Part shown: in pieces, positions 4,855 through 64,000 of the stretch
Position numbering within the stretch: position 1 is the stretch's first letter
How the letters are laid out: each line of letters opens with the position of its first letter
Assembly: GCA_024400835.1 (NCBI GenBank)
Contig: JAKSMC010000001.1
Span: 16,335-80,334, forward strand
DNA from: Bacteroidales bacterium
Lineage (GTDB): Bacteria > Bacteroidota > Bacteroidia > Bacteroidales > WCHB1-69
DNA length: 64,000 nt
Direction of reading: 5' to 3'
Notes under the pieces: model-generated
Database searches by the model: none
Seen by the model: only the letters and a program-made list of their open reading frames with translations
Told to the model about the DNA's origin: nothing
Program-made: the position numbers and the translations under genes

Positions 4855-5273
4855 AATATTTTTGTGAATTTATAATTTTTAATTTGGGTGTACAAATCGT
4901 CATATTCTGGGAATCCATAGGCCTCTAATTCCATTGTCGTATCTGTTTGGAATACGATGTCAAAACCGAGATATGGATGAATAATAAATTCATCGAAATA
5001 GTTATAATAACATCCATATATCTTTGAATCAACCAGTATATAAATATCGCCATTGCGGAAAACGTATCTAACCGGCTTAGTTGGACGTAACGGGTCAGGG
5101 TTTGTCTCTACTGTAACCATATCACTAGAATGGTCAATAGTCAAAACAATTTCCAAACCCTCCTCCGGTACGCATCTCCATTTGGTTATCTTTTCCTTAT
5201 GGCAGCCGCTAACGATAAGTGTCAGGGTGCAAAGGGCCAAAAGGATTACCATCGTGTGTTTTATATGTTTCAT
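4851..5273 (-). CDS. Small lipoprotein of unknown function (paralog B)
   Basis: Signal peptide plus lipobox (LIVSGC). It shares KEKITKW.CV.EEG.E.VLTID.S.D.VTVETNP.PL and a C-terminal IKNYKF.K.L with paralog A. Confidence 0.75.
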   Translation of the reverse strand: MKHIKHTMVILLALCTLTLIVSGCHKEKITKWRCVPEEGLEIVLTIDHSSDMVTVETNPDPLRPTKPVRYVFRNGDIYILVDSKIYGCYYNYFDEFIIHPYLGFDIVFQTDTTMELEAYGFPEYDDLYTQIKNYKFTKIL

Positions 5274-17257: not shown

Positions 17258-17763
17258 GGAATCGGTTGTAGTTTGGGTTCGTCGTAAATTTCCAAATCAG
17301 AGATATTGTCCCCGTCAATCTTCAGTCGCATCATCGTCAAACGGGTATGGAAGCCGTAACGTCCGGCGGCGCCGGGATTGATGAACATCAGATTGTTCTT
17401 CTTATCATACATAACCTTCAAGATATGGGAATGGCCGGCAACCAGCAGTGTCGGTTTTTCCTCCTGAATCAATTGCAAGCCTTCGGGGAAATACTTGCCC
17501 GGATATCCCACAATGTGCTTTATGGCCACCTTGTGGTTTTCGCATTGGAAAACCTGCGTCTCAGGAATTTCACGGCGGATATCCCAATCGTCGCAGTTGC
17601 CATAGACAGCGCGCACCACGGGGGCAATCGCCTGCAGTTCGTCCAAGATAAAGTCATCGACAATATCGCCTGCGTGCCATATCTCATCACACTCCTTGAA
17701 AAACTCAAAGGCATTGGGATGAAGGTAGCCGTGGGTATCGGAAAGTATGCCTATTTTCTTCAT
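17254..17763 (-). CDS. YfcE/MJ0936-family metallophosphoesterase
   Basis: Motifs ILSDTHG, GDIVD, GNCD and GHSH. It overlaps both neighbours by 4 nt. Confidence 0.8.
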   Translation of the reverse strand: MKKIGILSDTHGYLHPNAFEFFKECDEIWHAGDIVDDFILDELQAIAPVVRAVYGNCDDWDIRREIPETQVFQCENHKVAIKHIVGYPGKYFPEGLQLIQEEKPTLLVAGHSHILKVMYDKKNNLMFINPGAAGRYGFHTRLTMMRLKIDGDNISDLEIYDEPKLQPIP

Positions 17764-18530
17764 TCCTTCACCGGATTACGTTGTTTGACCACTTCGAACA
17801 GTGTGATTCCCGTAGCCACGGAGACATTCAGTGAGCGCACCGTGCCCACCATCGGAATGGTTACCGTGTCATTACAATGGCGCAGATAATCCCACGCAAT
17901 GCCCTCATACTCATTGCCCATAATCAGGCAGAGCGGACCGGTGAAATCTTTGTTGTAAAGCGCGTGGTTGGCCTTTTCGGTCACGCCCACCACCTCAATG
18001 CCGGAATCTTTGAGATACTGGATAACCTCCACGAGATTGGAGTGGCGACAGACTGGGATCTTGTTGAGTGCCCCTGCGGAGCTCTTCACAGCATCCTCGT
18101 TAAGTTGCGCGCCGCCATTCAGCGGAATGATGATTGCGTCAACGCCGGCGCATTCAGCCGAGCGGGCAATCGCGCCCACGTTGCGCACGTCCGTCACCTT
18201 GTCGAGCAGCAGTAGAAACGGAGTCCTACCCTCTTCGAAAATCGTCGGAACGATATCGTAAATGCTGCTGTACTCTATAGCCGACAGGAAGGCGACCACA
18301 CCCTGGTGGTTGTTGCGCGTCAGCCGGTTGAGTTTCTCGAGCGGCACATATTGGAACGGGATTTTATGCTGGCGAACTTCGTAAAAAAGCTGTTTGAAGA
18401 GTTCGCCCTGCAAACCTTTTTGGAAGAGCACCTTGTCAATGGTCTTGCCACTTTCGATGGCCTCGAAAATCGGGCGCATGCCGTAAATCAGGCTGGTGTC
18501 CTTTTCTTTATCGCGATTGTTTGGGAACAT
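17760..18530 (-). CDS. rlmB: 23S rRNA 2'-O-methyltransferase, SpoU/RlmB family
   Basis: N-terminal substrate-binding domain plus the SpoU C-terminal motifs (LIMGNEYEGI, IPMVGTVRSLNVS). The start is taken at MFPNN (18530). Confidence 0.85.
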   Translation of the reverse strand: MFPNNRDKEKDTSLIYGMRPIFEAIESGKTIDKVLFQKGLQGELFKQLFYEVRQHKIPFQYVPLEKLNRLTRNNHQGVVAFLSAIEYSSIYDIVPTIFEEGRTPFLLLLDKVTDVRNVGAIARSAECAGVDAIIIPLNGGAQLNEDAVKSSAGALNKIPVCRHSNLVEVIQYLKDSGIEVVGVTEKANHALYNKDFTGPLCLIMGNEYEGIAWDYLRHCNDTVTIPMVGTVRSLNVSVATGITLFEVVKQRNPVKE

Positions 18531-18590
18531 TATTTTCAAGTAATAATTAAGAGTTAAAAGATAAAAGAGCAAGTAGATGTAACGCCATTG

Positions 18591-18932
18591 CTATTTCTGT
18601 GGTTTGCGCACATAGTGCGGCATCTCCATCGGAATCTCCATAGACAATTCGATATATCCGGCAAATTCCCCGTTGTCGTACCAAGGCGACTGGTAAATCA
18701 GTTTCTTGATTCCGTTTTTCTCAATGGTATAGGCGTTGACGTTGTGGTTTTCCAACAAACCGAGCAACTTGGTGCGCGCTGGTTCCGGATGGCAGTCCAA
18801 GAGTGAATTGCCAATCAAGGGTTTTCCATCTTTGCAGAATGTTGCAACAGATTTGTCATTCATTTCCAATATCTTGCCATCTTTGTCACAAATGGTGACG
18901 GAGAACGGCGGTTCTTTAAAGTATTTAAGCAT
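18591..18932 (-). CDS. Small stand-alone PAS-domain protein
   Basis: A 113-aa protein with a PAS-like pattern (ICDKDGKILEMNDKS...NSLLDCHPEP...). The call is by eye only. Confidence 0.55.
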   Translation of the reverse strand: MLKYFKEPPFSVTICDKDGKILEMNDKSVATFCKDGKPLIGNSLLDCHPEPARTKLLGLLENHNVNAYTIEKNGIKKLIYQSPWYDNGEFAGYIELSMEIPMEMPHYVRKPQK

Positions 18933-18966
18933 AGTATCAATAATTTATCTTTTTCAAAAAACGGCG

Positions 18967-18974
18967 CAAACTTA
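18967..18974 (-). promoter_or_regulatory. -7 promoter box TAAGTTTG for the PAS gene
   Basis: Matches TAnnTTTG 35 nt upstream of the ATG at 18932. Confidence 0.4.
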
Positions 18975-19007
18975 CATAAAAAATCGGAATGAGGAGAGGC
19001 ATTCTTC

Positions 19008-30357: not shown

Positions 30358-32781
30358 ATGAAGGACATATCCCTTTTAGAAGACATTTTAGACAGCGACT
30401 CCAACTTCATACCGCTCTTTTCCTTGGATGACGAAGCCAGCCTCCAAAAAGTCCCCGTGCCCGACGAAATCGCCCTGCTGCCCTTGCGCAACACGCTCCT
30501 TTTCCCCGGCATGATTATCCCCATCAATGTGGGCAGGACAAAATCCATACGCCTGGCACAGGAATATTCCCATTCCACGGAGACCTTCGGCGTCATCGCA
30601 CAACGCACCAACGACGTGGAAGAGCCCACCGCAGATGACCTCTACAAAGTCGGCACACTGGCCCGCATCATCAAGCACATCACTATGCCCGACGGCGGTG
30701 TGACCATCATCGTGCAAGGCATCAAGAGCTTCACACTCAAGGAAATCACACAGACAGAACCTTACTACAAAGGCGCTGTCGAACCCCTCGTCACCAACGA
30801 ACTCGACCCCGCCATTGTCAACCACAAGAACTTCAAGGCCTTAGTGTCCACGCTTCGCGACACCGCAGGACGCATGATCAAAATGGCGCCCAACATGCCA
30901 CGCGAGGCCGCACTCGCCCTCAAAAATATCGAAAGCAACTCCTTCCTTATCAACTTCCTGGCTTCCAACCTCAACACTTCCGTCGAGGACAAACAACACA
31001 TCCTCGAGGAAACCAACATCGTTGACCGCGCCAAAACGGTACTCAAGTACCTCAACCGCGACATCCAGATGCTGGAACTCAAAAACCAGATCCAGGACAA
31101 GTCCAAACAGGAGTTGGACAAACAGCAGCGCGAATACTTCCTCAACCAGCAGATGAAGACCATCCAGGAAGAATTAGGTGGGTCTCCTTCTGAAAAAGAC
31201 TACGCCTCCCTCAAGGAACGCGCCGCCAAGAAAAAATGGGACAAGGAAACAGCAGCGCTCTTCAACAAGGAGTTGGAAAAACTGCAACGCACCAACCCCA
31301 TGGCGCCCGACTACTCCGTACAGCTCAACTACTTGGAGCTGCTCGTTGACCTGCCGTGGAACGAATTCAGCAAAGACAACTTCGACCTGCAGCGCGCCCG
31401 CAAGGTGCTCGACAAAGACCACTACGGCTTGGACAAGGTGAAGGAGCGTATCCTCGAGTATCTTGCCGTCCTCAAATTGAAAGGCGACATGAAGTCTCCG
31501 ATTCTCTGTCTGGCAGGCCCTCCGGGCGTGGGTAAAACCTCCCTCGGAAAGTCCGTCGCCGCCGCACTGGGACGTAAATACGTACGCGTCTCCCTCGGCG
31601 GTCTTCGCGACGAGTCTGAAATCCGCGGACACCGCAAGACCTACATCGGCGCCATGCCCGGCCGCATCATCCAGAACATGCGCAAGGCCGGCTATGCCAA
31701 CCCTGTGTTCGTATTGGACGAAATTGACAAAATCACGGGTATGAACGTCCAGGGTGACCCCTCCGCCGCACTGCTGGAAGTTATGGATCCCGAACAGAAT
31801 AACGCATTCTACGACAACTACCTGGAGACCTCTTTCGACCTCTCCCGCGTGCTCTTCATTGCCACAGCCAATGACCTCGGCAGCGTACATCCCGCTCTTC
31901 GCGACCGTATGGAGATCATCGAAGTGCCCGGATATCTGGCCGAAGAGAAGCTGGAAATCGCCAAACGCCATCTGGTTCCTAAGCAGTTGGACGAAAACGG
32001 ATTGAGTAAGAAGGACCTTCAGATTCCGGCGAAAACTATTGAAACGGTCATCAGCGAATACACCCGCGAATCCGGTGTGCGTACGTTGGAACGCACGATT
32101 GCCAAAATCATCCGCAAACGTGCCGCGCAACTGGTTCAGGAAGGGCATATTGAAAAGAAAGTAGAACCTAAGGACCTGAAAGAGATTCTCGGCTCACCCA
32201 TCTTCCAATTGGAGAAGGCTTTCGACAACTCCGTACCGGGCGTGGCCACAGGCTTGGCTTGGACAGCCGTGGGCGGTGAAATCCTCTTCGTGGAGGCTCT
32301 GACCTCTCCGGGCAAAGGCGAACTCACCATGACCGGCAGCCTCGGCGACGTGATGAAGGAATCCGCCACCATCGCCTACGAGTTTCTCAAAGCTCACGCC
32401 GAAAACTTCGGCATTGACCCTGCCGTCTTCGAAAAGAAGAAAGTCCACGTGCACGTGCCAGAAGGTGCCACCCCGAAAGACGGCCCTTCCGCCGGCATCA
32501 CCATACTCACCGCTCTCATCTCCGCGTTTACCGGCAAAACCTTGCGCGACAAAATCGCCATGACCGGTGAAATCACCCTGCGCGGAAAACTCCTCCCCGT
32601 GGGCGGCATCAAGGAGAAAATCCTCGCCGCCAAACGCAGCGGCATCTACGACATCGTGATGTGCGCCGACAACAAAAAGGACATCGACGACATCAAAGAG
32701 AACTTCATCGACGGTATGCACTTCCACTACTTCTCCTCTATGAAAGAGGCCGTGGAGTTCAACTTCGGCATTGACCGTTAA
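30358..32781 (+). CDS. lon: ATP-dependent Lon protease
   Basis: Walker [10 protein letters not shown] and the catalytic-Ser region [10 protein letters not shown]. The start is taken at MKDISLLED. Confidence 0.95.
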
Positions 32782-33933: not shown

Positions 33934-34605
33934 ATGAACAAGGTCTCGGAAAACCCTTCAAAAAACCGAACATTACCCCCGCTCGTCGTAATCGTAGGTT
34001 TGCTTGTCACCTGCTACCTGACGGCCAATGTCATGGCCGTGAAATTGATCAATGTCTTCGGCGTAACCATTTTCGACGCAGGCACCATCATCTTCCCCAT
34101 CACCTATATGTTAGGCGACGTGCTCACGGAAATATGGGGATATCAAACCGCCAAGCGCGTGATCTGGCTGACATTCTTCTGCGAAATAATCTTCACCGTA
34201 TTTGTCTGGATAGGCATTTGGCTGCCCTTCCCGGAGGAGACTGCCGCCAACGCGGAAGCCTACCATCAGGTATTCGCCTTCGTGCCGCGCATCACTATAG
34301 CGTCGCTTTTAGCATTCCTATGTGGCGAGTTAATCAATGCCTGGGCCATGGTCAAAATCAAAGAGCGCACCAAGGGCCGTCATCTGTGGATACGGACCAT
34401 CGGTTCCTCCGTGTTCGGCTACATCGTTGACACCACCATATTCGTCTGCATCGCCTTCATAGGCACAGTGCCCACGCGGGACATACTCTCGATGATAGGC
34501 ATCCAGATTGTAGTCAAGTTGCTCATTGAGAGCCTCGGCGCCACCCCTATGGCATACGCTCTGATTGGGTGGCTGAAGGCCTTAGACCTTGATATCGAAC
34601 ATTGA
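33934..34605 (+). CDS. yhhQ: Queuosine-precursor transporter (YhhQ/VUT family)
   Basis: FPITYMLGDVLTEIWGY motif in a multi-TM protein. Confidence 0.8.
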   Translation: MNKVSENPSKNRTLPPLVVIVGLLVTCYLTANVMAVKLINVFGVTIFDAGTIIFPITYMLGDVLTEIWGYQTAKRVIWLTFFCEIIFTVFVWIGIWLPFPEETAANAEAYHQVFAFVPRITIASLLAFLCGELINAWAMVKIKERTKGRHLWIRTIGSSVFGYIVDTTIFVCIAFIGTVPTRDILSMIGIQIVVKLLIESLGATPMAYALIGWLKALDLDIEH

Positions 34606-34628
34606 CATTGACTTTTTGGGGGCGCATC

Positions 34629-34663
34629 CTGAAATCTGAAACCTGAAACTTGAAACTTAAAGC
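34629..34663 (+). repeat. Period-7 array CTGAAAT CTGAAAC CTGAAAC TTGAAAC TTAAAGC between the convergent yhhQ and purF-like genes
   Basis: Read directly. TGA occurs at 34630, 34637, 34644 and 34651, and TAA at 34658. A hexamer repeat ACATTG x2 over the yhhQ stop (34599..34612) precedes it. Confidence 0.65.
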
Positions 34664-34720
34664 TCACTGCGTCTTTGCGGTGAAAACAAAACCGCAGAGG
34701 CGTGAAGAGGCAAAGTCCGG

Positions 34721-44777: not shown

Positions 44778-46559
44778 ATGGATTTGATTAAATTAACAAT
44801 AGATAATAGAGAAGTTGAAGTACCAAGAGGTACCACTATTCTTAAAGCCGCTAAAGGCATGGGTATCGATATTCCTACCCTTTGCCATTTCGAATTGGAA
44901 GGTTTCAAATTCCACAACAAACCCGGTGGTTGCCGTGTTTGCGTAGTGGAAGTTGCTGGCCGTCGTAACCTCGCTCCTGCTTGCGTCACCGAATGTATGC
45001 CGGATATGGTTGTCAAAACCAACTCCATGCGCGTTCTCAACGCTCGCAAAACGGTGTTGGAACTGATCCTTTCCGACCATCCAAACGATTGTTTGCAATG
45101 TGCTAAGAGCGGCAACTGCGAACTCCAAGACCTCGCAATCCGCTTCGGCATCCGCAAAAACCCGTTCACCGGTGCTGAACACACACAATCTTCTTACAAA
45201 GTAGAACTTTCACCTTCTATCGTTCGCGATATGAACAAGTGCGTTATGTGCCGTCGCTGCGAAACAATGTGTAACGAAATCCAAAGCGTTGGCGCACTCT
45301 CCGCTATCCACCGTGGTTTCCCAGCAGTTGTTTCTACAGCTTTCGAAAAACAACTCACCGAAACTCCTTGCGTATTCTGCGGCCAATGTGTTGCAGTTTG
45401 CCCGGTTGGCGCTCTTACAGAAGTTGACAACAACGGTAAGGTTCTCCGCGACATCGCTGATCCTGCTAAGAAGACGGTTGTCCAAGTTGCTCCTGCTGTA
45501 CGTGTTGCTCTCGGCGAAGAATTCGGCATGGCTCCTGGTTCCATCGTAACCAAGAAGCTCACCGCTGCTCTCAAGGCTATCGGTTTCGACTATGTATTCG
45601 ACACTGACTGGTCTGCCGACTTGACCATCATGGAAGAAGGTACCGAATTGATCGGCCGCCTCACCAAGTTCCTTGCTGGCGACAAGAGCGTTAAGATTCC
45701 TTTGATGACATCTTGCTGCCCTGCATGGGTTAACTTCTATGAAAAACATTTCCCGCAATTAAGAGAATATCCTTCAACCGCTAAATCTCCGCAACAGATG
45801 TTCGGCGCTATCGCTAAGAACTACTTCGCAGACAAAATCGGCTGCAAACGCGAAGATATGGTTTGTGTTTCCGTAATGCCTTGCGTTGCTAAGAAATACG
45901 AAACCGGTCGTGAAGAACTCGCTAAGAACGGCAATCCTGACGTTGACTACTCCATCACCACTCGCGAATTGGCTCGCCTCATCAAGATGGCCAACATCGA
46001 CTTCAACAGCCTTCCTGATGCAGAATTCGACAGCCCGCTCGGCGAATCAACAGGTGCTGCTGTTATCTTCGGCGCAACTGGCGGCGTAATGGAAGCTGCT
46101 GTTCGTACCGCTTACGAAGTTATCACAGGCAAGACCCTCCCGAAAGTTGATTTCGAAGAACTCCGTGGCCTCGAAGGCGTTAAAGAAGCTACCGTACACG
46201 TACAAGACGGTTTGGATCTCAAACTCGCCATCGTACACGGCTTAGGCAACGCTCGCAAGATGCTCGAACTCATCGAAAAAGGCGAATGCCCGTATCACGC
46301 AATCGAAGTTATGGCTTGTCCTGGTGGCTGTATCGACGGCGCTGGCCAACCTTATCACCATGGCGATTCCAGCATCATCAAAGCTCGTTGGGAAGCTACT
46401 TACCAAGCCGATAGAGAAATGCCGATCCGTAAATCTCATGAGAACCCGTCCATCCAAGCTATCTACAAAGAATATCTTGGCGAACCGTGCGGTCATCTCT
46501 CTCACGAATTGCTGCACACTCACTACTTTGACAACCAAATCAAAGTGGAGGCTGAATAA
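44778..46559 (+). CDS. hydA: [FeFe] hydrogenase catalytic subunit (HydA/HndD)
   Basis: H-cluster motifs TSCCPAW, MPCVAKKYE and EVMACPGGCIDGAG, plus an N-terminal 2Fe-2S domain and ferredoxin-like Cys clusters. Confidence 0.95.
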   Translation: MDLIKLTIDNREVEVPRGTTILKAAKGMGIDIPTLCHFELEGFKFHNKPGGCRVCVVEVAGRRNLAPACVTECMPDMVVKTNSMRVLNARKTVLELILSDHPNDCLQCAKSGNCELQDLAIRFGIRKNPFTGAEHTQSSYKVELSPSIVRDMNKCVMCRRCETMCNEIQSVGALSAIHRGFPAVVSTAFEKQLTETPCVFCGQCVAVCPVGALTEVDNNGKVLRDIADPAKKTVVQVAPAVRVALGEEFGMAPGSIVTKKLTAALKAIGFDYVFDTDWSADLTIMEEGTELIGRLTKFLAGDKSVKIPLMTSCCPAWVNFYEKHFPQLREYPSTAKSPQQMFGAIAKNYFADKIGCKREDMVCVSVMPCVAKKYETGREELAKNGNPDVDYSITTRELARLIKMANIDFNSLPDAEFDSPLGESTGAAVIFGATGGVMEAAVRTAYEVITGKTLPKVDFEELRGLEGVKEATVHVQDGLDLKLAIVHGLGNARKMLELIEKGECPYHAIEVMACPGGCIDGAGQPYHHGDSSIIKARWEATYQADREMPIRKSHENPSIQAIYKEYLGEPCGHLSHELLHTHYFDNQIKVEAE

Positions 46560-46585
46560 TTAATTAATCTGTAAAATTATAAATT

Positions 46586-47071
46586 ATGGCAATAACAGTA
46601 AAAATTAATAAAGAAACTCATGATAAGATCGTTGCTATTTGTAATAATTTCAACAACGATCCCGGTGAATTGATCAATGTATTGCATCAAACACAGGATT
46701 TCCTCGGTTATCTGCCCGCAGAAGCTCAGGAATTAATCGCTGAATGTTTGCATATGCCTACAGCTAAGGTTTTCGGCGTTGTATCTTTCTACGCTTTCTT
46801 CACCATGACCCCGAAGGGCAAACACCCAGTATCCGTATGTATGGGTACCGCTTGCTACGTCCGCGGCGGCGAAAAGATCCTCGACGCTTTCAAGAGCGAA
46901 CTCGGTATCGAAGTTGGTGAAACTGACGCTAACGGCGAATTCTCATTGACATCCTTGCGTTGTGTAGGTGCTTGCGGTTTGGCTCCTGTTGCCCTCGTTG
47001 ATGGCAAAGTTTACGGCCGCTTGGTTCCTGCTATGGTTAAGGACATCGTTGCTGAATACAGAGGAAAATAA
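46586..47071 (+). CDS. hydC: NuoE-like [2Fe-2S] subunit (HydC/HndA)
   Basis: Cys motifs VCMGTACYVRG and RCVGACGLAP. Confidence 0.9.
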   Translation: MAITVKINKETHDKIVAICNNFNNDPGELINVLHQTQDFLGYLPAEAQELIAECLHMPTAKVFGVVSFYAFFTMTPKGKHPVSVCMGTACYVRGGEKILDAFKSELGIEVGETDANGEFSLTSLRCVGACGLAPVALVDGKVYGRLVPAMVKDIVAEYRGK

Positions 47072-48937: not shown

Positions 48938-52849
<3,912 letters not shown>

Positions 52850-52855
52850 TTATTC

Positions 52856-53257
52856 CTATTCCACAAGTGATTTTATATATTCGATAAAAGAATAGGCTTG
52901 GTCAGTAAGAGCAGCAACATCTTCTTTTGTACACAAAACGAAATCATCATAATCACCACTTTGTCGTTTTTCAAAAAGTGTTGATAGTGTTTTCCCTATC
53001 TCTATTGGAACAATTCCGGAAGCCACGAAATGTAAACCAAACATTGTTTTGACCCCGGCGTGACTTTGAGCTTGCAAATCATTTTTCAGCAACAAAGAAA
53101 TAACCGCATAATAGCAAGCATAGTATAGTCTGTTAATAGCAGCATTATAATATCCTTCTCCGGATAAAAGTGCTGCTTCTTTCATAGTTTCAGAAGCGCG
53201 TTCCAAACGATACTTCACCAAAGCATTTTTGCTTTCTATATCTAATATTTGTTTCAT
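52856..53257 (-). CDS. HEPN-domain protein (toxin partner of MNT)
   Basis: HEPN pattern with KRQSGDYDD. It overlaps the MNT gene by 4 nt. Confidence 0.8.
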   Translation of the reverse strand: MKQILDIESKNALVKYRLERASETMKEAALLSGEGYYNAAINRLYYACYYAVISLLLKNDLQAQSHAGVKTMFGLHFVASGIVPIEIGKTLSTLFEKRQSGDYDDFVLCTKEDVAALTDQAYSFIEYIKSLVE

Positions 53258-55887: not shown

Positions 55888-57510
55888 CTATTTGCGGCCG
55901 TCGCCCACGATGATGCGGCCTTGCGGCTCAGCATACTCCGTTCCGATTTTCTTGTTGAGGAATTTCGTAATGTAGGTCTCCAAAATCTCGGCATCACTGC
56001 AGACAGCGTCTTTTGTGATTACGATGTTCGGGAAGACAACACCGTCGCCATTGTCTCTAAGGACGTAAGCACTGGCAGCAATAGTGTAATGTGCCGTAGG
56101 AACGATAGGTTCGTACTCACCCGTGTTCTTGTTGAGGACAGTCACATGATGAACACGACGTTTCCCATTGACAGAAGAGAACACTCCATTACCGTCTACA
56201 ATAACGGAAGAAGCGACAGTTGTATCGATTTCATATTTCAGACCGGAAACTTGAGCAAAGCCGCCGTTGTCAACCGGGCTTCTTCTTGAAGTCATCTCCA
56301 AAGCATCAAGTACGGCCTGGCCGGTGACTTCACCTACAGCAGCCTGGCTGTTGAACGGGAACACGGACAACAATGAATTCAGCGTTATTTTCCCAGCCGG
56401 AAGGTCAGCACGGATGCTACCGCCATTGCACCAACCGATGTCCGTATTCTGGGTCATTCTATAAGCGTCAGCACAAAAGTCGCCAAGATTACATTCGAGT
56501 TTGCGAACGATACGGGCGCCTGCCTCGTCATTGATGGACTGTGCAACAGCGCTGCTGCCGATTTCACGTCTGCCAGCCTCATCAACCTTATTCTTCACGG
56601 AAGCAGCCCAGAAGCTGACCTTGCTGTCATAGAAAATCTCATCCGTCGGAATCAATTCCGTACTGATATGACCATTGGATTTGATAATCAAACGGCCGAC
56701 ATTAGCGAAAGCCGTACCGGTAGAAGAAAGCACTACCTTTTTGCCCTTGCTATTGAGAACCGTCTGCTGAGGAATTTCACTATGAGCGTGGCCGTCCAAA
56801 ACGACGTCAATGCCAGAAGTATGGGAAATCAATTGCAAAGAAGTGGGAGCACTGCCCACATCGCCAAGATGAGAAATCACCACAACGTAATCAGCACCTT
56901 CCTGACGAGCCTGGTCAACTTCATTTTGTACGATCTCAAAAAGTCTGTCCTGGCAGAAAGTATAAACGAACTTTCCATTTTCATCTTTGAAATAAGCCGG
57001 AGTAGAAGAAGTCATGGATTCGGGTGTTGAAACACCAATGAAGGCAACATTCAGCTTGCCAAATTGTTTGATGGCATGGCCGTCGAACATCGTTTTGTTT
57101 CCGTCTATTGTTCTAAAATTGCAGCTGAGCGTCTTAGCGGTCAACTTCTCCGTCAATTTCTGTAACTGCGGTATGCGGTAGTCAAACTCATGATTACCTA
57201 ATGTAATGAAGTCATAACCAACGACATTCATCAACTCCACAATATATTCTCCTTTGTTGATAGAGCCGAAAACGTTTCCGGAAACGAAGTCACCGCAAGA
57301 GACCAATGCCACATTCGGCGTCAGATTTTTCATCACGTCACGTTCGCCAGCCATACGGGCATAACCGTCAATAGCACAGTGGACATCGTTATCATATAAG
57401 ATGACAACGTCCTTAGGTTTGATATTTTGTGCATCAATTTGGCCAACTGAGCCAAATGAGAACAATATCATTATTACGATAACAAACTGATAGATAGAAT
57501 TTTTCTTCAT
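55888..57510 (-). CDS. Secreted bifunctional metallophosphatase/5'-nucleotidase (UshA-like)
   Basis: DVHC..., GDFVSG and GNHEFDY motifs, plus a C-terminal 5'-nucleotidase domain. Confidence 0.85.
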   Translation of the reverse strand: MKKNSIYQFVIVIMILFSFGSVGQIDAQNIKPKDVVILYDNDVHCAIDGYARMAGERDVMKNLTPNVALVSCGDFVSGNVFGSINKGEYIVELMNVVGYDFITLGNHEFDYRIPQLQKLTEKLTAKTLSCNFRTIDGNKTMFDGHAIKQFGKLNVAFIGVSTPESMTSSTPAYFKDENGKFVYTFCQDRLFEIVQNEVDQARQEGADYVVVISHLGDVGSAPTSLQLISHTSGIDVVLDGHAHSEIPQQTVLNSKGKKVVLSSTGTAFANVGRLIIKSNGHISTELIPTDEIFYDSKVSFWAASVKNKVDEAGRREIGSSAVAQSINDEAGARIVRKLECNLGDFCADAYRMTQNTDIGWCNGGSIRADLPAGKITLNSLLSVFPFNSQAAVGEVTGQAVLDALEMTSRRSPVDNGGFAQVSGLKYEIDTTVASSVIVDGNGVFSSVNGKRRVHHVTVLNKNTGEYEPIVPTAHYTIAASAYVLRDNGDGVVFPNIVITKDAVCSDAEILETYITKFLNKKIGTEYAEPQGRIIVGDGRK

Positions 57511-57536
57511 TTGAATAGCTATTTTTATTGAAGCCG

Positions 57537-57544
57537 CAAAAGTA
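57537..57544 (-). promoter_or_regulatory. -7 promoter box TACTTTTG for the 5'-nucleotidase gene
   Basis: Matches TAnnTTTG 27 nt upstream of the ATG at 57510. Confidence 0.45.
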
Positions 57545-57588
57545 TGAAAAAACTTTGGCTTAAGGCTTTATACATTAGCCTTTTTTTG

Positions 57589-57596
57589 TACCTTTG
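57589..57596 (+). promoter_or_regulatory. -7 promoter box TACCTTTG for the nqr operon
   Basis: Matches TAnnTTTG 23 nt upstream of the ATG at 57619. This argues against the longer ORF-track start at 57544. Confidence 0.5.
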
Positions 57597-57618
57597 CGCC
57601 TTTCAAAAGCATTATACA

Positions 57619-58959
57619 ATGAAATATAAAATCTCGAAGGGACTTGACTTGAAGTTAGCAGGCGAACCTGTGGACAAAGAAGTCAGCATTCCGATGTCCA
57701 AGACATTTTACGTGAAGCCGACTGATTTCCGTTGGTTCACCCCACGTCTACGCGTTCAGGAAGGCGCATCCGTTGACGTCGGCACACCGTTGTTTGCCGA
57801 CAAGCAGGATGAGCGCATCGTCCTCGTTTCTCCTGTCAAAGGCACAGTACGGCAGATTGTCAGAGGCGAGAAGCGCGCTATCCAGGCCGTGGTCATAGAG
57901 GCTGACGAAACCCCTGTCGTCACTCGCACTGTGGACTTTGCCGAGCCTACCGACAGCGCAACTATCCGCGAAATACTACTGCAGAATGGTCTGTGGGCCT
58001 GCCTGCGCCAACGTCCGTTTTCCACTATGCCGAGCCCAGACGTCACCCCGACCGCCGTCTTTGTGTCCTGCTTCGACTCCGCTCCGCTTGCCCCCGACTA
58101 CAATATATTATTAAGAGGCAGGGAAGAGGCTTTCCGCAAAGGCATTGGCATCCTGCGCTTAGCGGCTGACAATGCCCCGGTGCACATTTGCATGCGCGAA
58201 GATGGCCAAAACGAACTTTTCGAAAGTTGCGAGAATGTCAGCAAACACTACTTCAGCGGACCGCATCCCGCCGGCAACGTAGGCACGCAAATACACCTTG
58301 TCAGTCCCATCAACAAAGGAGATGTCGTATGGTTCGTCCATCCCGCAGAAGTTGCCCGTATCGGACAACTGTTCCTCAACCACACACTGTCCTTCGACAA
58401 GAAAGTAGCCCGCACCGGACCCTGTCTGGCCACTACCGGCTACTTCGACACTGTTTATGGGGCAGACATTTCCGACATCCTGTTTGCCAATCTGCCTGAC
58501 AAAAGTTTTCGCAATATCAGCGGCAACGTGCTCACAGGAGCTCTGCTTGCGGAATTTCCGACTGTCCGCTTCTATGATTACCAAACCACAGTCATTGAAG
58601 AAGGCGGCAAACGGGAATTCATCGGCTGGCTGCTACCCGGCTTCAAAAAGTGGAGCTTTTCGCACACCTACTTGTCCTGGCTCACCAAAAACAAGGTTTA
58701 CCAACACAACACCTCATTGCACGGCGGGCGCCGCACCTTTATGATGACCGACGTATATGACAAAGTCTTTCCTTTCGACATCATACCCTTGTCATTGCTC
58801 AAAGCCTGCTACATCAAAGACATCGAACAGATGGAAGCCTTAGGCATTTACGAGGTGGATGACGAAGACTTCGCCCTCTGCGAAGTGGTGTGCCCGTCCA
58901 AAATGGAATGTCAGCAGATTGTACGCGACGCACTTTGTGAGTTAAGAGTTAAGAACTAA
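57619..58959 (+). CDS. nqrA: Na+-translocating NADH:quinone oxidoreductase subunit A
   Basis: MKYKISKGLDLKLAGEP start typical of NqrA, and its position as first gene of the nqr operon. Confidence 0.9.
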   Translation: MKYKISKGLDLKLAGEPVDKEVSIPMSKTFYVKPTDFRWFTPRLRVQEGASVDVGTPLFADKQDERIVLVSPVKGTVRQIVRGEKRAIQAVVIEADETPVVTRTVDFAEPTDSATIREILLQNGLWACLRQRPFSTMPSPDVTPTAVFVSCFDSAPLAPDYNILLRGREEAFRKGIGILRLAADNAPVHICMREDGQNELFESCENVSKHYFSGPHPAGNVGTQIHLVSPINKGDVVWFVHPAEVARIGQLFLNHTLSFDKKVARTGPCLATTGYFDTVYGADISDILFANLPDKSFRNISGNVLTGALLAEFPTVRFYDYQTTVIEEGGKREFIGWLLPGFKKWSFSHTYLSWLTKNKVYQHNTSLHGGRRTFMMTDVYDKVFPFDIIPLSLLKACYIKDIEQMEALGIYEVDDEDFALCEVVCPSKMECQQIVRDALCELRVKN

Positions 58960-58980
58960 GAGTTAAGAGTTAAAAATTGA
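58939..58980 (+). repeat. Period-7 array GAGTTAA GAGTTAA GAACTAA GAGTTAA GAGTTAA AAATTGA straddling the nqrA stop
   Basis: Read directly. TAA or TGA recurs every 7 nt from 58943 to 58978. The nqrA stop is the one at 58957. Confidence 0.7.
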
Positions 58981-58992
58981 AAATATTAGATA

Positions 58993-60081
58993 ATGGCAAA
59001 ATTCAACGCATTATTTGACGCCATAGACTCGTTTTTGCGGACGCCAGCCACGGTGACGACCAGTGGCAGCCACATCCGCGATTCGGTCGATATGAAACGC
59101 ATCATGATCACCGTGATGATAGCCCTATGTCCCGCGCTGCTTTTCGGCATGTGGAACGTAGGTTACCAACATTTTTTAAGAATGGGTTATGAGGCCAGCA
59201 TCTTCGGATGTTTCTGGTACGGCTTTTTGAAATGGCTGCCGTTAGTCATTGTGACCTACGTCAGCGGTTTGGCCATTGAAGTGCTGTTCGCACAAATTCG
59301 CAAAGAAGAGGTGGCGGAAGGCTTCTTCGTCACAGGCTTCATCATCCCGATGATTATGCCGCCTGATGTGCCGCTTTGGATTGTTGCCGTAGCCACGGCC
59401 TTTTCCGTATTGTTCGCGAAAGAGGTGTTCGGAGGCACCGGCTACAACTTCCTGAACCCGGCGTTGGTGGCCCGCGCCTTCGTATTCTTCGCCTACCCCT
59501 CCGTCATCTCCGGTGATTCCGTTTGGGTATCCAGGGCACCGCAAGACGCCATCACAGGAGCCACGCCGTTAGGCATGGTGATGAACGGCAATATGGACGC
59601 GATGCCTTCCACGCTGGAAATGTTCATCGGCACCATCCCCGGCTGCATCGGCGAGACCTGCAAAATCGCAATCCTGCTTGGTGCCGTCATCCTGCTCCTG
59701 ACGCAAGTGGCCGACTGGCGCATTATGTTCTCCGTATTCACCGGGGGATATGTCACAGCTGTGATTTTCCGTGTCTGCGGGTTGTGCGTGATACCGGGCT
59801 ACCAGCAACTGCTGATGGGCGGATTTCTATTCGGCACCGTCTTTATGGCCACGGATCCTGTAACAGCGGCACACACAGAAATGGGCAAGTACATCTACGG
59901 CCTGTTCATCGGCATATTGGCCATCATCATCCGCGTGCTCAACAAAGGCTATCCCGAAGGTATGATGCTCGCCATCCTGCTGATGAACATCTTCGCTCCG
60001 CTCATCGACTACTGCGTCGTGCAAAGCAACATCAAGCGAAGAGAAAAACGATTGTCTAACGCTAAAAAAACGACCCGATGA
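58993..60081 (+). CDS. nqrB: Na+-NQR subunit B
   Basis: A polytopic membrane protein with the NqrB/RnfD pattern (GGTGYNFLNPAL, FMATDPVT). Confidence 0.9.
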   Translation: MAKFNALFDAIDSFLRTPATVTTSGSHIRDSVDMKRIMITVMIALCPALLFGMWNVGYQHFLRMGYEASIFGCFWYGFLKWLPLVIVTYVSGLAIEVLFAQIRKEEVAEGFFVTGFIIPMIMPPDVPLWIVAVATAFSVLFAKEVFGGTGYNFLNPALVARAFVFFAYPSVISGDSVWVSRAPQDAITGATPLGMVMNGNMDAMPSTLEMFIGTIPGCIGETCKIAILLGAVILLLTQVADWRIMFSVFTGGYVTAVIFRVCGLCVIPGYQQLLMGGFLFGTVFMATDPVTAAHTEMGKYIYGLFIGILAIIIRVLNKGYPEGMMLAILLMNIFAPLIDYCVVQSNIKRREKRLSNAKKTTR

Positions 60082-60680
60082 AAAACTTCAGCAACACCTA
60101 CATCTTTATATACGTCACTGCGCTGGTATTAGTGATTGCCGTTGTGCTGTCTGCCGTGGCCATCGGGCTCAAGCCCAAACAGGAGGCCAACAAGCAGGCC
60201 GAAAAGGCACAGCAGATCCTGAAGGCGGCCGGATATCCCGACATCGAGCGCACGAAGGCCGTTGACTTCTTTGCCTCGGTGGCGCAAGCCAAAGAGGGCC
60301 AGGAACGTGAAATGTACAGCATCCGCTGTGCCGACGGCACCAACGGCACCGTAGTTTCCCTGCGGGGCAAAGGACTCTGGGGACCCATCTGGGGTTATGC
60401 CGTACTTTCCGAAGACAACACCACAGTGAAAGGCGTCTCCTTCTCGCACAAATCCGAAACCCCAGGCTTGGGCGCAAAAATTACGGAAGAGAACTTCACA
60501 CAGTCCTTTGTCGGCAAAAGACTTTATGACAAAGACGGCAACTTCGTATCTGTAAAAGTCGTACCCAAAGGCAAAGGCGGCAACATTGCCGAAGAGAACC
60601 GCGTAGATGCCATCTCCGGAGCTACCATCACCTCAAAAGGGGTGGATAAAATGCTGCAAGAATTGAAAATTGAAAATTGA
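60078..60680 (+). CDS. nqrC: Na+-NQR subunit C
   Basis: A single TM segment plus the FMN-attachment motif SGATITS. Confidence 0.9.
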   Translation: MKNFSNTYIFIYVTALVLVIAVVLSAVAIGLKPKQEANKQAEKAQQILKAAGYPDIERTKAVDFFASVAQAKEGQEREMYSIRCADGTNGTVVSLRGKGLWGPIWGYAVLSEDNTTVKGVSFSHKSETPGLGAKITEENFTQSFVGKRLYDKDGNFVSVKVVPKGKGGNIAEENRVDAISGATITSKGVDKMLQELKIEN

Positions 60681-60688
60681 AAATTATG
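60661..60688 (+). repeat. Period-7 array AATTGAA x3 plus AATTATG spanning the nqrC stop and the nqrD start
   Basis: Read directly. TGA occurs at 60664, 60671 and 60678 (the last is the nqrC stop). The fourth unit supplies the ATG at 60686. Confidence 0.7.
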
Positions 60689-61285
60689 AAGAAATATCTC
60701 GGACCTTTAAGCAAAGACAACCCCATATTGGTGCAGATTTTAGGAGTCTGTTCCGCTTTGGCGGTGACTGCCCAGATGAAGCCGGCGGTTGTAATGGCGC
60801 TCTCCGTCACCGTGGTGTGCGCCTGCTCCAACTTCATCATATCGCTGATGCGCAACACCATCCCGCCACGCATCCGCATCATTGTACAACTGTTGGTTGT
60901 CTCCTTCTTCGTCATTTTAGTTGACCAGGTGTTACAGGCCGCGCTCTACGACGTCAGCAAGATGTTGTCCGTGTTCGTCGGGCTCATCATCACCAACTGC
61001 ATCATTATGGGCCGTTTGGAGGCATTTGCCCTCTCGCACAAACCCATTCCCTCTCTCATTGACGGTGTCATGAACGGGTTGGGCTACGGATTAGTGCTCG
61101 TCATCGTGGCCTTCTTCCGCGAACTGCTCGGTTCCGGCACGCTTTGGAACCACCAAGTCATCCCACAGGCATTGTACAATGCCGGATACCTCAACAACGG
61201 CCTGATGATTCTGCCGCCTATGGCACTCATCTTGGTCGGTACGCTCATTTGGATTAAGAACGCTAAATTCGACAAGGTAAAATGA
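60686..61285 (+). CDS. nqrD: Na+-NQR subunit D
   Basis: NPILVQILGVCSALAVT pattern. The ATG at 60686 is preferred over the TTG at 60677. Confidence 0.9.
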   Translation: MKKYLGPLSKDNPILVQILGVCSALAVTAQMKPAVVMALSVTVVCACSNFIISLMRNTIPPRIRIIVQLLVVSFFVILVDQVLQAALYDVSKMLSVFVGLIITNCIIMGRLEAFALSHKPIPSLIDGVMNGLGYGLVLVIVAFFRELLGSGTLWNHQVIPQALYNAGYLNNGLMILPPMALILVGTLIWIKNAKFDKVK

Positions 61286-61893
61286 AAGATATAGTTGACA
61301 TCTTCGTACGTTCGGTCTTCATCGACAATATGATTTTCGCCTATTTCTTAGGTATGTGCTCCTATCTGGCCGTATCCAAGAATGTGAAGACCGCCTTCGG
61401 ACTCGGACTGGCCGTGTGTTTCGTACTGGCCGTCACGGTGCCGGTAGATTATCTCCTGGACAAATACCTGCTTCGCGAAGGTGCGTTAACCTGGTTGGGT
61501 CCGCAATTCGCCACTGTCGATTTGTCGTTCCTGAGCCTCATCATCTTCATTGCCGTCATTGCCGGCATTGTCCAACTTCTGGAAATGATTATCGAGCGCT
61601 ACCTGCCGGCACTGAATATGGCATTGGGCATATTCCTGCCTCTGATTGCGGTGAACTGTGCCATCTTGGGCGGTTCGCTTTTCATGCAGGAGAAGAACTT
61701 CCCGACAGTATTCCACAGTTTCTCCTACGCACTCGGCTCGGGGTTAGGCTGGTTGTTGGCCATTGTGGCCTTTGCCGCCATCCGCGAGCGTCTCAAATAC
61801 TCCAACATCCCAGAACCTTTGAAGGGCAACGGCATCGCCTACATCATCACCGGACTGTTAGGCATAGGTTTTATGGCATTTTTAGGAATATAA
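61282..61893 (+). CDS. nqrE: Na+-NQR subunit E
   Basis: NqrE/RnfA pattern (NMIFAYFLGMC, AVNCAILG). It overlaps nqrD by 4 nt. Confidence 0.9.
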   Translation: MKDIVDIFVRSVFIDNMIFAYFLGMCSYLAVSKNVKTAFGLGLAVCFVLAVTVPVDYLLDKYLLREGALTWLGPQFATVDLSFLSLIIFIAVIAGIVQLLEMIIERYLPALNMALGIFLPLIAVNCAILGGSLFMQEKNFPTVFHSFSYALGSGLGWLLAIVAFAAIRERLKYSNIPEPLKGNGIAYIITGLLGIGFMAFLGI

Positions 61894-61914
61894 TAGTTCT
61901 CAAAACCCAATAGA

Positions 61915-63156
61915 ATGAATCTCACGACAATCATAACTGCGGCGATTATCTTCCTGGTCATCATCTGGCTTTTGGTGGCCATCCTGTTGTACGCACGCAA
62001 GAAAATGGTGCCGGAAGGCAAAGTGAAAATCACCATCAACGGTGAGAAAGAAGTGGAACATGAGCGCGGCTGCTCACTGTTGCAGGCGCTTTCAGACGAA
62101 AAGGTATTCGTCCCGTCAGCCTGCGGTGGCGGTGGCTCGTGCGGCACGTGCCGCGGCAAAGTGCTCTCCGGCGGCGGCGAAATACTGCCCACCGAACTGG
62201 CCCACATCTCCCGCAAACAGGCCGCCGAACACTATCGCCTCTTCTGCCAGGTCAAAGTGCGCGAAGATATGGAAATCGAAATCCCCAAGGAGTTCTTCGG
62301 CATCAAAAAGTGGAAATGCACCGTGCAGTCTAACAACAACGTGGCCACTTTCATCAAGCAACTGGTCCTCAAGTTGCCCGAAGGCGAGAAGATGAACTTC
62401 AAGTCTGGTGGCTATATCCAGATCGACATTCCCGCCTGCACGGTGGACTACAAGAATATCGACGTTGACGAGCAATACCGCGCCGACTGGCAGCGAATGG
62501 GGCTTTTCGACTTGAAGATGAAGAACAGCGCCGACACCGTGCGCGCCTACTCAATGGCCAACTACCCTGCCGAAGACGACATCGTGATGCTGAACGTCCG
62601 TATCGCCATTCCGCCTTTCAATCGCAAGAAAGGGTGTATGGAGAAGGTCAACCCCGGGGTGGCTTCTTCCTTCATCTACAACCTCAAGCCCGGTGACGAG
62701 GTTATGGTTTCCGGGCCTTACGGCGAATTCTTCGTCGAGGACACCGACCGCGAGATGATGTTCATCGGCGGCGGCGCCGGCATGGCTCCGATGCGGTCCC
62801 ATATCTTCGACCAGTTCAAGACCAAGCACACCACGCGCAAAACCTCTTTCTGGTATGGCGGCCGCTCCCTCAAAGAGTTGTTCTATATGGACGAATTTCA
62901 AAAGATTGCCGACGAGAACGACAACTTCGAGTTCCACATCGCCTTGTCGGATGCCCTGCCCGAAGACCACTGGACTGGCCCCACGGGATTCATCCACAAC
63001 GTCATCTTCGAAAACTACCTCAAGAACCATCCCAACCCAGAAGATATCGAGTACTACATCTGCGGCCCACCGATGATGCTGCAGGCCGTCCTCAAAATGC
63101 TCGACAGCCTCGGTGTCACACCGGAGATGATTCATTATGATGACTTTGGCGGGTGA
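61915..63156 (+). CDS. nqrF: Na+-NQR subunit F
   Basis: An N-terminal TM segment, the 2Fe-2S motif CGGGGSCGTC, and FAD/NADH motifs (RAYSMAN, GGGAGMAP). Confidence 0.95.
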   Translation: MNLTTIITAAIIFLVIIWLLVAILLYARKKMVPEGKVKITINGEKEVEHERGCSLLQALSDEKVFVPSACGGGGSCGTCRGKVLSGGGEILPTELAHISRKQAAEHYRLFCQVKVREDMEIEIPKEFFGIKKWKCTVQSNNNVATFIKQLVLKLPEGEKMNFKSGGYIQIDIPACTVDYKNIDVDEQYRADWQRMGLFDLKMKNSADTVRAYSMANYPAEDDIVMLNVRIAIPPFNRKKGCMEKVNPGVASSFIYNLKPGDEVMVSGPYGEFFVEDTDREMMFIGGGAGMAPMRSHIFDQFKTKHTTRKTSFWYGGRSLKELFYMDEFQKIADENDNFEFHIALSDALPEDHWTGPTGFIHNVIFENYLKNHPNPEDIEYYICGPPMMLQAVLKMLDSLGVTPEMIHYDDFGG

Positions 63157-63209
63157 TATAAAATAGATAATCCTGAAAAAAAACAATCATTAACTAAATT
63201 CATATCGCA

Positions 63210-63752
63210 ATGAAAAAATTATTCTACTTGTTGGCTGTTTGCGGACTGATGCTCGGATTCAGTGCCTGCAATCCGACACCAGATCCAAATCCCGGGCCGG
63301 ATGACCCAATTATCAATCCTGATTCTACGAACACTTCCGGAGATGATAATCTTCTAGGAATTTACATCGGGGAATACGATTTGCATATCGATGTCGAAGG
63401 TTATTACGTCGATGATGAGATTTCCGACAGCCAATCCGAACAATTTGACGGCACTTTGTCCATCGCTCTGCCCGAGGGGATTGAAAATCCTGCATTTGTA
63501 AATGTACAAGGTAAGTTCAATTTCGGCAATGGCGAGCAACGCCTGATTTACAACACCACAGGAGCATTGGATGCCAACGGCAATTTGGTATTGGAAGACA
63601 ACACCTATATGGGTGGTGCTGTCCCCATCACCATCTCCTATGAGGCCATTTCGCAAAACCAACCACTCACTTGGCATTCAACAATGTCTGCCGAACTCAG
63701 TGGATACAATATCCGCTATGAACTTTATAACATAGCCACCAAGATTCGATAA
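63210..63752 (+). CDS. Lipoprotein of unknown function, probably co-transcribed with nqrF
   Basis: Lipobox LGFSAC. No terminator or -7 box is seen in the 53-nt gap after nqrF. A strong terminator follows this gene. Confidence 0.65.
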   Translation: MKKLFYLLAVCGLMLGFSACNPTPDPNPGPDDPIINPDSTNTSGDDNLLGIYIGEYDLHIDVEGYYVDDEISDSQSEQFDGTLSIALPEGIENPAFVNVQGKFNFGNGEQRLIYNTTGALDANGNLVLEDNTYMGGAVPITISYEAISQNQPLTWHSTMSAELSGYNIRYELYNIATKIR

Positions 63753-63769
63753 ACCTCATCTTTACGCAT

Positions 63770-63805
63770 AAAAAAATCCCGGCTGGAACCAGTCGGGATT
63801 TTTTA
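63770..63805. terminator. Bidirectional rho-independent terminator between convergent genes
   Basis: An A-run, then a stem AATCCCGGCT/AGTCGGGATT (one wobble) with a 6-nt loop, then a T-run. Confidence 0.75.
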
Positions 63806-63823
63806 TTTATGCGAAATCAACGA

Positions 63824-64000
63824 TTAGTCTTGCATCAGAATTTCGAGCATCTTGATAGCGCAGTCGCTGATGATGGAGCCCGGTCCGAAGATACAGGAAG
63901 CACCTGCATTGTAGAGGAACTCGTAATCTTGCGGCGGGATGACGCCACCCACGATGACCATAATGTCCTCGCGGCCGAGTTTCTTGAGTTCTTCGATGAC
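63824..64000 (-). CDS. C-terminal B12-binding end of a methylmalonyl-CoA mutase-type protein (partial; continues beyond the window)
   Basis: Hand translation gives ..VIEELKKLGREDIMVIVGGVIPPQDYEFLYNAGASCIFGPGSIISDCAIKMLEILMQD*, typical of the mutase cobalamin-binding domain terminus. Confidence 0.75.
   Translation of the reverse strand, partial: VIEELKKLGREDIMVIVGGVIPPQDYEFLYNAGASCIFGPGSIISDCAIKMLEILMQD

Follow-up and report, generated by a model that had tools for sequence, protein, structure and literature searches.

A strain-variable heptanucleotide repeat array across the nqrA stop codon of an uncultured Bacteroidales bacterium

Of the long simple sequence repeats (LSSRs) in prokaryotic genomes, those with heptanucleotide units are the most over-represented, and their proposed cause is slippage of the polymerase (Mrazek 2007, as summarized in PMC4679880 and PMC4692102). 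Among the families described individually, the GGGAATC and GGGGAYT repeats of Xanthomonas and Nostoc are 89 to 93% intergenic, lie on average 28 nt from the upstream open reading frame (ORF) and 160 nt from the next one, occur mostly between co-oriented genes (16% are convergent and 7 to 8% divergent), and vary in length between species (Rehm et al. 2015, PMC4692102). TAACTGA repeats, the function of which has not been established, are found in Beggiatoaceae, Cyanobacteria, and five Bacteroidetes (MacGregor 2015, PMC4679880), and the cyanobacterial STRR comprise three tandemly repeated heptanucleotides in Calothrix PCC 7601 (as cited in PMC4692102). Here, we describe a heptanucleotide array that runs across the stop codon of nqrA in a 64,000-nt stretch of an uncultured Bacteroidales genome (GenBank assembly GCA_024400835.1, contig JAKSMC010000001.1, positions 16,335 to 80,334), which we call the window and to which all unprefixed coordinates refer. 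The array is a microsatellite, probably hypermutable, that changes in 7-nt steps among strains. It belongs to the known general class of heptanucleotide repeats, is by its sequence not a TAACTGA repeat, an STRR, or a G-quadruplex repeat, and is not a contingency switch.

The array at the nqrA end is real and non-random (Table 1). Tandem Repeats Finder called its core as period 7 with 5.0 copies and a score of 56, and the window as a whole holds three period-7 arrays with a score of at least 10 against 0.13 expected from dinucleotide-preserving shuffles, while the other periods from 4 to 12 give almost nothing. The identities of nqrA through nqrF, of which nqrC to nqrF come after nqrB, are backed by NCBIfam equivalog matches. 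NqrA ends in ...DALCELRVKN, and both ELRVKN and the stop codon come from array units 1 to 3; the nqrB ATG follows the end of the core array at 19 nt, or at 12 nt if one counts from 58980. On the forward strand, stop codons fall at 58943 and 58964 (frame 2), 58950 and 58971 (frame 0), and 58957 and 58978 (frame 1), and on the reverse strand they fall at 58942, 58949, 58956, 58963, and 58970, which shuts all three reverse frames, the third of them solely because the variant unit GAACTAA has a TAG in its complement. A preliminary description of this DNA had read the array as extending from 58939 to 58980, with the same six forward stops closing each forward frame twice, with the reverse frames closed as well, with the first units encoding the NqrA tail, and with the nqrB ATG 12 nt downstream; all of this matches the sequence, with the refinement that one reverse frame depends on the variant unit. 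The TGA at 58978 is private to the window strain, as TGT occupies this position in 9 of the 9 other contigs that span the site.

Table 1. Positions of the nqrA-end array, its flanking genes, and the other period-7 repeats in the window
Feature	Position	Strand	Details	Source
Core heptanucleotide array	58939..58973	+	GAGTTAA x2, GAACTAA, GAGTTAA x2	Sequence and Tandem Repeats Finder
Degenerate sixth unit	58974..58980	+	AAATTGA, similar to the nqrC/D unit	
nqrA	57544..58959	+	471 aa; stop codon TAA (58957-58959) supplied by array unit 3	
Leader	58981..58992	+	Final 12 nt of the A/T-rich leader ahead of the nqrB ATG	
nqrB	58993..60081	+	ATG at 58993	NCBIfam equivalog
Second array	60661..60685	+	AATTGAA x3.6; NqrC tail ELKIEN; nqrC stop TGA at 60678-60680; abuts nqrD ATG at 60686	
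Third array	34629..34658	+	CTGAAAY x4, between convergent genes	Tandem Repeats Finder
Weak GAGTTAA-family array	18544..18568	-	Opposite orientation; TCTTTTA TCTTTTA ACTCTTA ATTATTA on the gene strand	
Two-unit AAATTAT repeat	46574..46587	+	14 nt past the stop of 44778-46559, reaching into the ATG at 46586	
Weak two- to three-unit repeat	4867-4885			

To follow the array among strains, same-species metagenome contigs were retrieved by exact-protein look-up and alleles were read from the assemblies rather than from raw reads; nine independent contigs span the junction and, together with the window, make up ten sequences. Identity to the window is 100% for two contigs of SRR17543908 and 99.1 to 99.4% for the remaining contigs of the nqr region. 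Three alleles are present at the junction, namely (GAGTTAA)3, the (GAGTTAA)2 GAACTAA (GAGTTAA)2 of the window, and (GAGTTAA)3 GAACTAA (GAGTTAA)2, and they place 19, 33, or 40 nt between the nqrA stop and the nqrB ATG for 3, 5, or 6 units, respectively. NqrA was called at 471 aa in 6 of 6 contigs that contain the complete gene, and the in-frame TAA of unit 3 is kept in every junction-spanning contig; both follow from three units amounting to 21 nt, or seven codons, and the alleles alter NqrA only at its last residue, which is N or S. When nine haplotypes were aligned over 5.5 kb, single-nucleotide polymorphisms (SNPs) occupied 60 columns, whereas 21 of the 21 gap columns fell inside the array, and the 5-unit and 6-unit alleles are found on haplotypes that are one SNP apart. 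The 19 nt from 58974 to 58992, with A at -3, are constant in length in all strains and carry one A/T substitution, at 58980, and the copy number of the nqrC/D array is identical in 11 of the 11 sequences compared. The expectation in the preliminary description, which had suggested a comparison of unit number across strains, was that gain or loss of a unit would touch only a few terminal residues and shift the intercistronic spacing, and this is seen in nature. The locus thereby offers a natural three-allele series in an essential respiratory operon, in which the protein is intact and only the intercistronic spacing is changed.

An assembly artifact was also considered and is ruled out, as the array is present in independent assemblies from several samples. 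Three Logan contigs break within the nqrA/B array, one at its end (L001, at 58968) and two at their start (L010 and L011, at 58942), which is consistent with either a mixture of unit numbers in one sample or repeat-induced branches in the assembly graph.

The array phenomenon is lineage-wide and not special to nqr. A scan with NqrB yielded 80 loci of uncultured Bacteroidales (1.39 Mb, best match 82% identical), mostly from rumen and gut metagenome-assembled genomes (MAGs), in which genes were called crudely by greedy selection of long ORFs (about 90% coding). These loci contain 112 period-7 arrays, compared to 1 to 25 for each other period from 4 to 12, with 12.1 per 100 kb among close relatives against 3.8 among distant ones, and period 7 accounts for 86 of the 124 arrays in the close relatives. 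Only 7 of 115 arrays lie inside ORFs, i.e., about 94% are outside, against about 90% coding DNA, and per kilobase of spacer there are 0.97 arrays between co-directional, 0.80 between convergent, and 0.20 between divergent genes. Of the 76 arrays that lie between co-directional genes, 41 reach back into the upstream ORF, by 1 to 29 nt, and a further 14 start 0 to 7 nt from its stop. The enrichment of period-7 arrays at 3' gene ends, proposed in the preliminary description as something to look for genome-wide, is thus strong in this lineage as far as the surveyed loci go. On the practical side, metagenome assemblies of rumen Bacteroidales are interrupted at such arrays and gene ends are called at shifted positions, and the arrays may serve as strain markers.

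The composition of these arrays bears on what their stop codons mean. Stops in all three sense-strand frames are found in 78% of the arrays versus 45 to 53% expected from composition, whereas all three antisense frames are closed in 47% versus 44 to 46% expected; by chance alone, six frames would be closed in about 24% of heptamer arrays of matched composition. Since stops are enriched on the sense strand without enrichment on the antisense strand, we read the closure of the reverse frames as coincidence, and the idea that six-frame closure as such is a selected feature, which the preliminary description had put in the foreground, is rejected. On the sense strand, purines make up 63% of the stop-overlapping arrays (45 of 50 are above one half), as opposed to 46 to 48% for arrays more than 7 nt from a stop. 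Units are highly diverse across the survey, and one 20-kb locus may hold many unrelated ones; at the same time, when arrays from different spacers of the same genome are paired, 14 of 161 pairs share an identical unit (8.7%), compared with baselines of 0.94% between genomes and 0.2% for random heptamers. GAGTTAA-type units, for example, occur at two loci in the 64-kb window and at three loci in the surveyed contig L017.

Inverted heptamer pairs such as (GAGTTAA)n ... (TTAACTC)n or TAGAGTT ... CTCTAAT, which would form long stem-loops, were observed just downstream of genes in several surveyed contigs (L014 at 18933-19007, L015 at 18869-18968, and L104, L142, L154, L175, L176, and L181). No inverted partner is present near the nqrA/B array, which is separated by 40 kb from the single further GAGTTAA-type site of the window.

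In related species, arrays occupy differing nqr junctions (A/B, B/C, C/D, D/E, or E/F, by species), sister species often lack an array at the orthologous junction, and distant relatives have ordinary short nqr spacers. The nqrC/D array is found at the same codon position in five genomes, those of the window and four relatives, where its unit is GAATTGA, CAATTAA, or CAGTTGA and the encoded tail is always x-L-x-[IV]-x-N-stop. The NqrA tails ELRVKN of the window and ELRTQN of relatives are equal in length, and the stretch coding for the latter, GAATTGAGAACGCAGAATTAA, looks to us, from its sequence, like a decayed three-unit array.

The placement of GAGTTAA arrays on gene ends recurs in unrelated metagenomes. 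An exact scan for (GAGTTAA)3 returned at least 120 metagenome stretches and 16 viral contigs, and among the matches listed, 64 of 80 plus-strand arrays with a plus-strand gene to their left start -28 to +7 nt from the stop of that gene, whereas for arrays of the opposite orientation the count is only 8 of 50 (Fisher p = 5e-13). The offsets among the matches listed are mostly -7, -14, and -21, such that unit 1, 2, or 3 supplies the TAA that ends the gene, and the flanks cover a wide range of G+C content. As GAGTTAA carries a TAA on both strands, a stop-codon filter alone cannot favor one orientation over the other. Because ORFs enter (GAGTTAA)n in all three frames (-7, -14, and -21), which gives no consistent tail, a function of the encoded tail as a peptide tag was rejected. 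In the viral contigs (L222 to L237, from IMG/VR), arrays in both orientations overlap gene ends, including 7 of 12 in the opposite orientation, and one giant-virus MAG holds a 35-unit array (L231, 4532-4776).

Set against the described systems, the arrays share with the LSSRs, as these are summarized in the two later papers (PMC4679880, PMC4692102), tandem 7-nt units with heptamers dominant, a mostly intergenic location, variable length, and slippage as the proposed cause. The marks of an LSSR are found here, i.e., a tandem unit of 5 to 11 nt repeated beyond chance, an excess of period 7, a bias toward noncoding DNA at 3' ends, and copy-number variation among strains. Unlike the genomes richest in LSSRs according to those summaries (Burkholderia, Xanthomonas, cyanobacteria, and actinobacteria), the host here is an uncultured rumen Bacteroidales, and unlike in the summarized accounts, many of our arrays begin within the last 21 nt of an ORF. 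With the heptamers of Xanthomonas and Nostoc, they have in common that they are mostly intergenic, lie closer to where the upstream ORF ends, are seldom found between divergent genes, and vary in length; the units of the former are G-rich and able to form G-quadruplexes, whereas GAGTTAA, AATTGAA, and CTGAAAC lack runs of G, and those repeats are not reported as a source of stop codons, in contrast to the nqrA array (PMC4692102). TAACTGA is likewise an A/T-rich 7-nt unit that shuts all three forward frames, some of its sets run over the stop codon of the gene before them, by as much as about 18 nt, and have no predicted RNA structure, one unit occurs at many loci of a genome, and contigs often break in the repeats (PMC4679880). 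Closure of all three forward frames, which limits the overlap of TAACTGA repeats with an upstream ORF to under three units, is shared by the present array, whose overlap with nqrA is exactly 21 nt. GAGTTAA in its best register, TAACTCT, matches TAACTGA at 5 of 7 positions and on the opposite strand only. Moreover, TAACTGA repeats lie mainly just upstream of starts (PMC4679880), whereas the arrays here and (GAGTTAA)n elsewhere lie on stops.

A resemblance to the STRR may lie in tandem heptamer families dispersed over many noncoding loci of a genome; the differences are the units and the host, which is a Bacteroidales bacterium (a type IX secretion system [T9SS] sorting domain was found in the window). 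The consensus units of the STRR, attributed to Mazel et al. in 1990, are said to be CCCCAGT, TTGGTCA, and CAACAGT, and we know of no link between them and stop codons. As with the contingency repeats of Haemophilus and Neisseria, the copy number is hypermutable and varies among strains, but those repeats toggle a reading frame or promoter, whereas here protein length is unchanged for every observed allele. The initial statement that no function is described for such arrays can be kept in the sense that none has been demonstrated, while the arrays themselves have precedents in the TAACTGA (PMC4679880) and GGGAATC/GGGGAYT (PMC4692102) repeats.

Our results lead us to conclude that the array is probably a slippage-driven heptanucleotide microsatellite that is tolerated at the 3' end of nqrA and for which no dedicated function is required. 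Units would be gained and lost by strand slippage during replication, and what we see would be the arrays that have passed three filters. The unit carries a stop, so that an ORF entering it in any frame would end within 21 nt; the purine-rich sense strand would encode only a short polar tail, ELRVK followed by N or S; and the variable part would lie upstream of the fixed 19-nt leader of nqrB, at spacings where coupling should already be lost. More generally, an overlapping array would be translated in whichever frame slippage leaves, with purine-rich units giving short polar tails and pyrimidine-rich units giving hydrophobic ones; Parsell, Silber, and Sauer reportedly found in 1990 that nonpolar C-terminal residues destabilize proteins in E. 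coli. Closure of the forward frames would then be a condition of survival rather than a purpose, closure of the reverse frames would be coincidental, and any effect of unit number on nqrB translation would be small at most. A slippage-tolerant gene end had been among the possibilities raised at the outset, and it fits the excess of arrays in which all three sense frames are stopped.

Three observations are not predicted by purely neutral slippage. Within-genome recurrence of units (8.7% against 0.94% between genomes) goes beyond what purely neutral slippage would give, and the strand asymmetry of (GAGTTAA)n at gene stops (64 of 80 versus 8 of 50 among the matches listed) exists despite a TAA on both strands. 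In addition, the nqrC/D array has stayed at one codon position across genomes with 60 to 65% NqrC identity while its units changed in concert, and it is invariant among strains. One could take from this that purine-rich, stop-overlapping heptamer arrays form a functional class that acts at the level of RNA or transcription in Bacteroidales and many other metagenomic lineages, with genome-specific units that would either be read by a co-evolving factor or be made in a transcription-coupled manner. We are decidedly doubtful of this broader proposal; if it were true, the number of units would be inherited yet quick to mutate, and would set how strongly the next cistron is expressed or what becomes of the 3' end of the mRNA. 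Whatever the mechanism, it has to accommodate the strand-specific placement at stops, the purine richness at the stop, the genome-specific units, and the rarity of arrays between divergent genes.

Among the specific functions that might be assigned to the junction, one is the tuning of translation, in which, in a lineage without Shine-Dalgarno sites, a selected, A/U-rich and unstructured spacer would set the initiation of nqrB while the number of units dials the NqrA:NqrB stoichiometry. The array stands within an operon for a complex of fixed stoichiometry, immediately ahead of an A-rich leader that has an A at -3, and initiation in Flavobacterium johnsoniae is governed by local structure and by nucleotides near the start such as A-3, in keeping with a reliance of Bacteroidetes on low structure and upstream A residues (PMC6847099); translational regulation was also what MacGregor proposed for the TAACTGA repeats (PMC4679880). 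The predicted accessibility of the nqrB start (-20 to +12, from the partition function) is slightly higher with the array than with random genomic 35-mers inserted in its place (0.64 against 0.56 +/- 0.08), yet it is flat, at 0.63 to 0.64 for 3, 5, 6, 8, and 12 units, and equal to that of shuffled arrays (0.62 +/- 0.05). Furthermore, the variable units lie upstream of a leader of fixed length, and termination-reinitiation is almost abolished at a spacing of about 20 nt in E. coli and Haloferax (PMC10666635), so that with spacers of about 20 nt or more (19, 33, and 40 nt) the three alleles should be essentially uncoupled. Arrays also adjoin stops rather than starts (a co-oriented start lies within 15 nt of the array end in 8 of 48 GAGTTAA arrays among the matches listed), and convergent spacers, which have no start codons, nearly match the array density of co-directional ones. 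We therefore consider such tuning unlikely here, including the tuning of translational coupling that the preliminary description had suggested for a lineage without Shine-Dalgarno sites; a tie to such a lineage is not supported either, as arrays are placed in the same way in Xanthomonas and Nostoc, which are distant from the Bacteroidetes (PMC4692102). Extremely improbable in our judgment is a phase-variable on/off switch of nqr expression: the copy number is indeed polymorphic, but the TAA of unit 3 is in frame in all spanning contigs, NqrA has 471 aa wherever the gene is complete, and nqr is a core respiratory operon and not a surface or virulence gene. Nor is the array in a promoter, as a scan for promoters and terminators from 57000 to 64000 found none above shuffled controls and none on the plus strand at the junction, and a contingency switch by frame or promoter shift was accordingly rejected. 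A programmed -1 frameshift was discarded as well, as GAGTTAA does not have the form X XXY YYZ and no structure beyond that of shuffled controls is present.

Action through a bound factor was weighed in the same way. Here, the arrays would present RNA or DNA sites to a factor that co-evolves with the unit of its genome, for which an S1-, Csp-, or KH-type RNA-binding protein would be a candidate, and would amount to a dispersed post-transcriptional regulon at gene ends. The genome-specific unit families suggest as much, the strand-specific placement argues for action at the level of RNA or transcription, and the nqrC/D array has been kept over long evolutionary distances with concerted change of its units. 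Many unrelated units may nonetheless share a single 20-kb locus, orthologous junctions of sister species are often without arrays, the number of copies drifts from strain to strain, no factor that might serve was identified, and an Rfam scan of the whole window found no family at gathering score, all of which makes a binding platform rather improbable to our minds. An origin coupled to transcription would, in turn, explain how the arrays arise and where they are placed without claiming any function, in that purine-rich RNA freed of ribosomes past the stop would form R-loops and thereby promote slippage. It would agree with arrays that begin at or just inside stop codons, with sense-strand purine richness restricted to arrays at the stop, and with the depletion of divergent spacers. 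We nevertheless think it quite improbable, given that filters for polar tails and stop codons would account for the same bias in overlapping arrays and that the opposite orientation also overlaps gene ends in the viral contigs (7 of 12).

Elsewhere in the window, the preliminary description had counted three more period-7 arrays at gene ends, including the one at the nqrC/nqrD junction. Two strong ones stand, that at the nqrC/nqrD junction and that at 34629-34658, whereas the other candidates are weak (18544-18568, 46574-46587, and 4867-4885). The array at 18544-18568 follows one stop codon at 22 nt and precedes the start codon of a minus-strand gene (17760-18530) by 10 nt, a start-side rather than stop-side placement that resembles the one described for TAACTGA repeats. 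The array at 34629 begins 23 nt past the stop of a queuosine-precursor transporter gene (33934-34605) and shows point changes and one 7-nt deletion among strains. The stop codon of this transporter is held by a hexamer duplication, (A)CATTGA CATTGA (34597-34611), which is present in a single copy in strains L093 and L096 and represents a second repeat polymorphism at a stop codon, and a long imperfect hairpin (34659-34720) directly follows the array. GC-rich hairpins of the form CAGCCCC-nnnn-GGGGCAA(A/G)A..CTCGG adjoin heptamer arrays in the nqr spacers of five surveyed contigs (L017, L020, L027, L029, and L030) and may represent a small dispersed hairpin element or a terminator.

Repeats of other periods were seen within coding sequence. 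An in-frame 9-nt repeat (TCATTGCCG x2.7) lies in nqrE at 61547-61570, and the Lon protease gene carries repeats of about 21 to 22 nt at 30972-31018 and 32667-32712, the first of which was called by Tandem Repeats Finder as period 22 with 7% indels; units of 9 and 21 nt are divisible by three, and heptamers are not. Finally, a large gene for a glycoside hydrolase (GH) family 2 protein (48939-52916) has 91 to 92% identity to two contigs (L003 and L005) between flanks of about 99%, a pattern suggestive of either a divergent allele or a tract of recombination.

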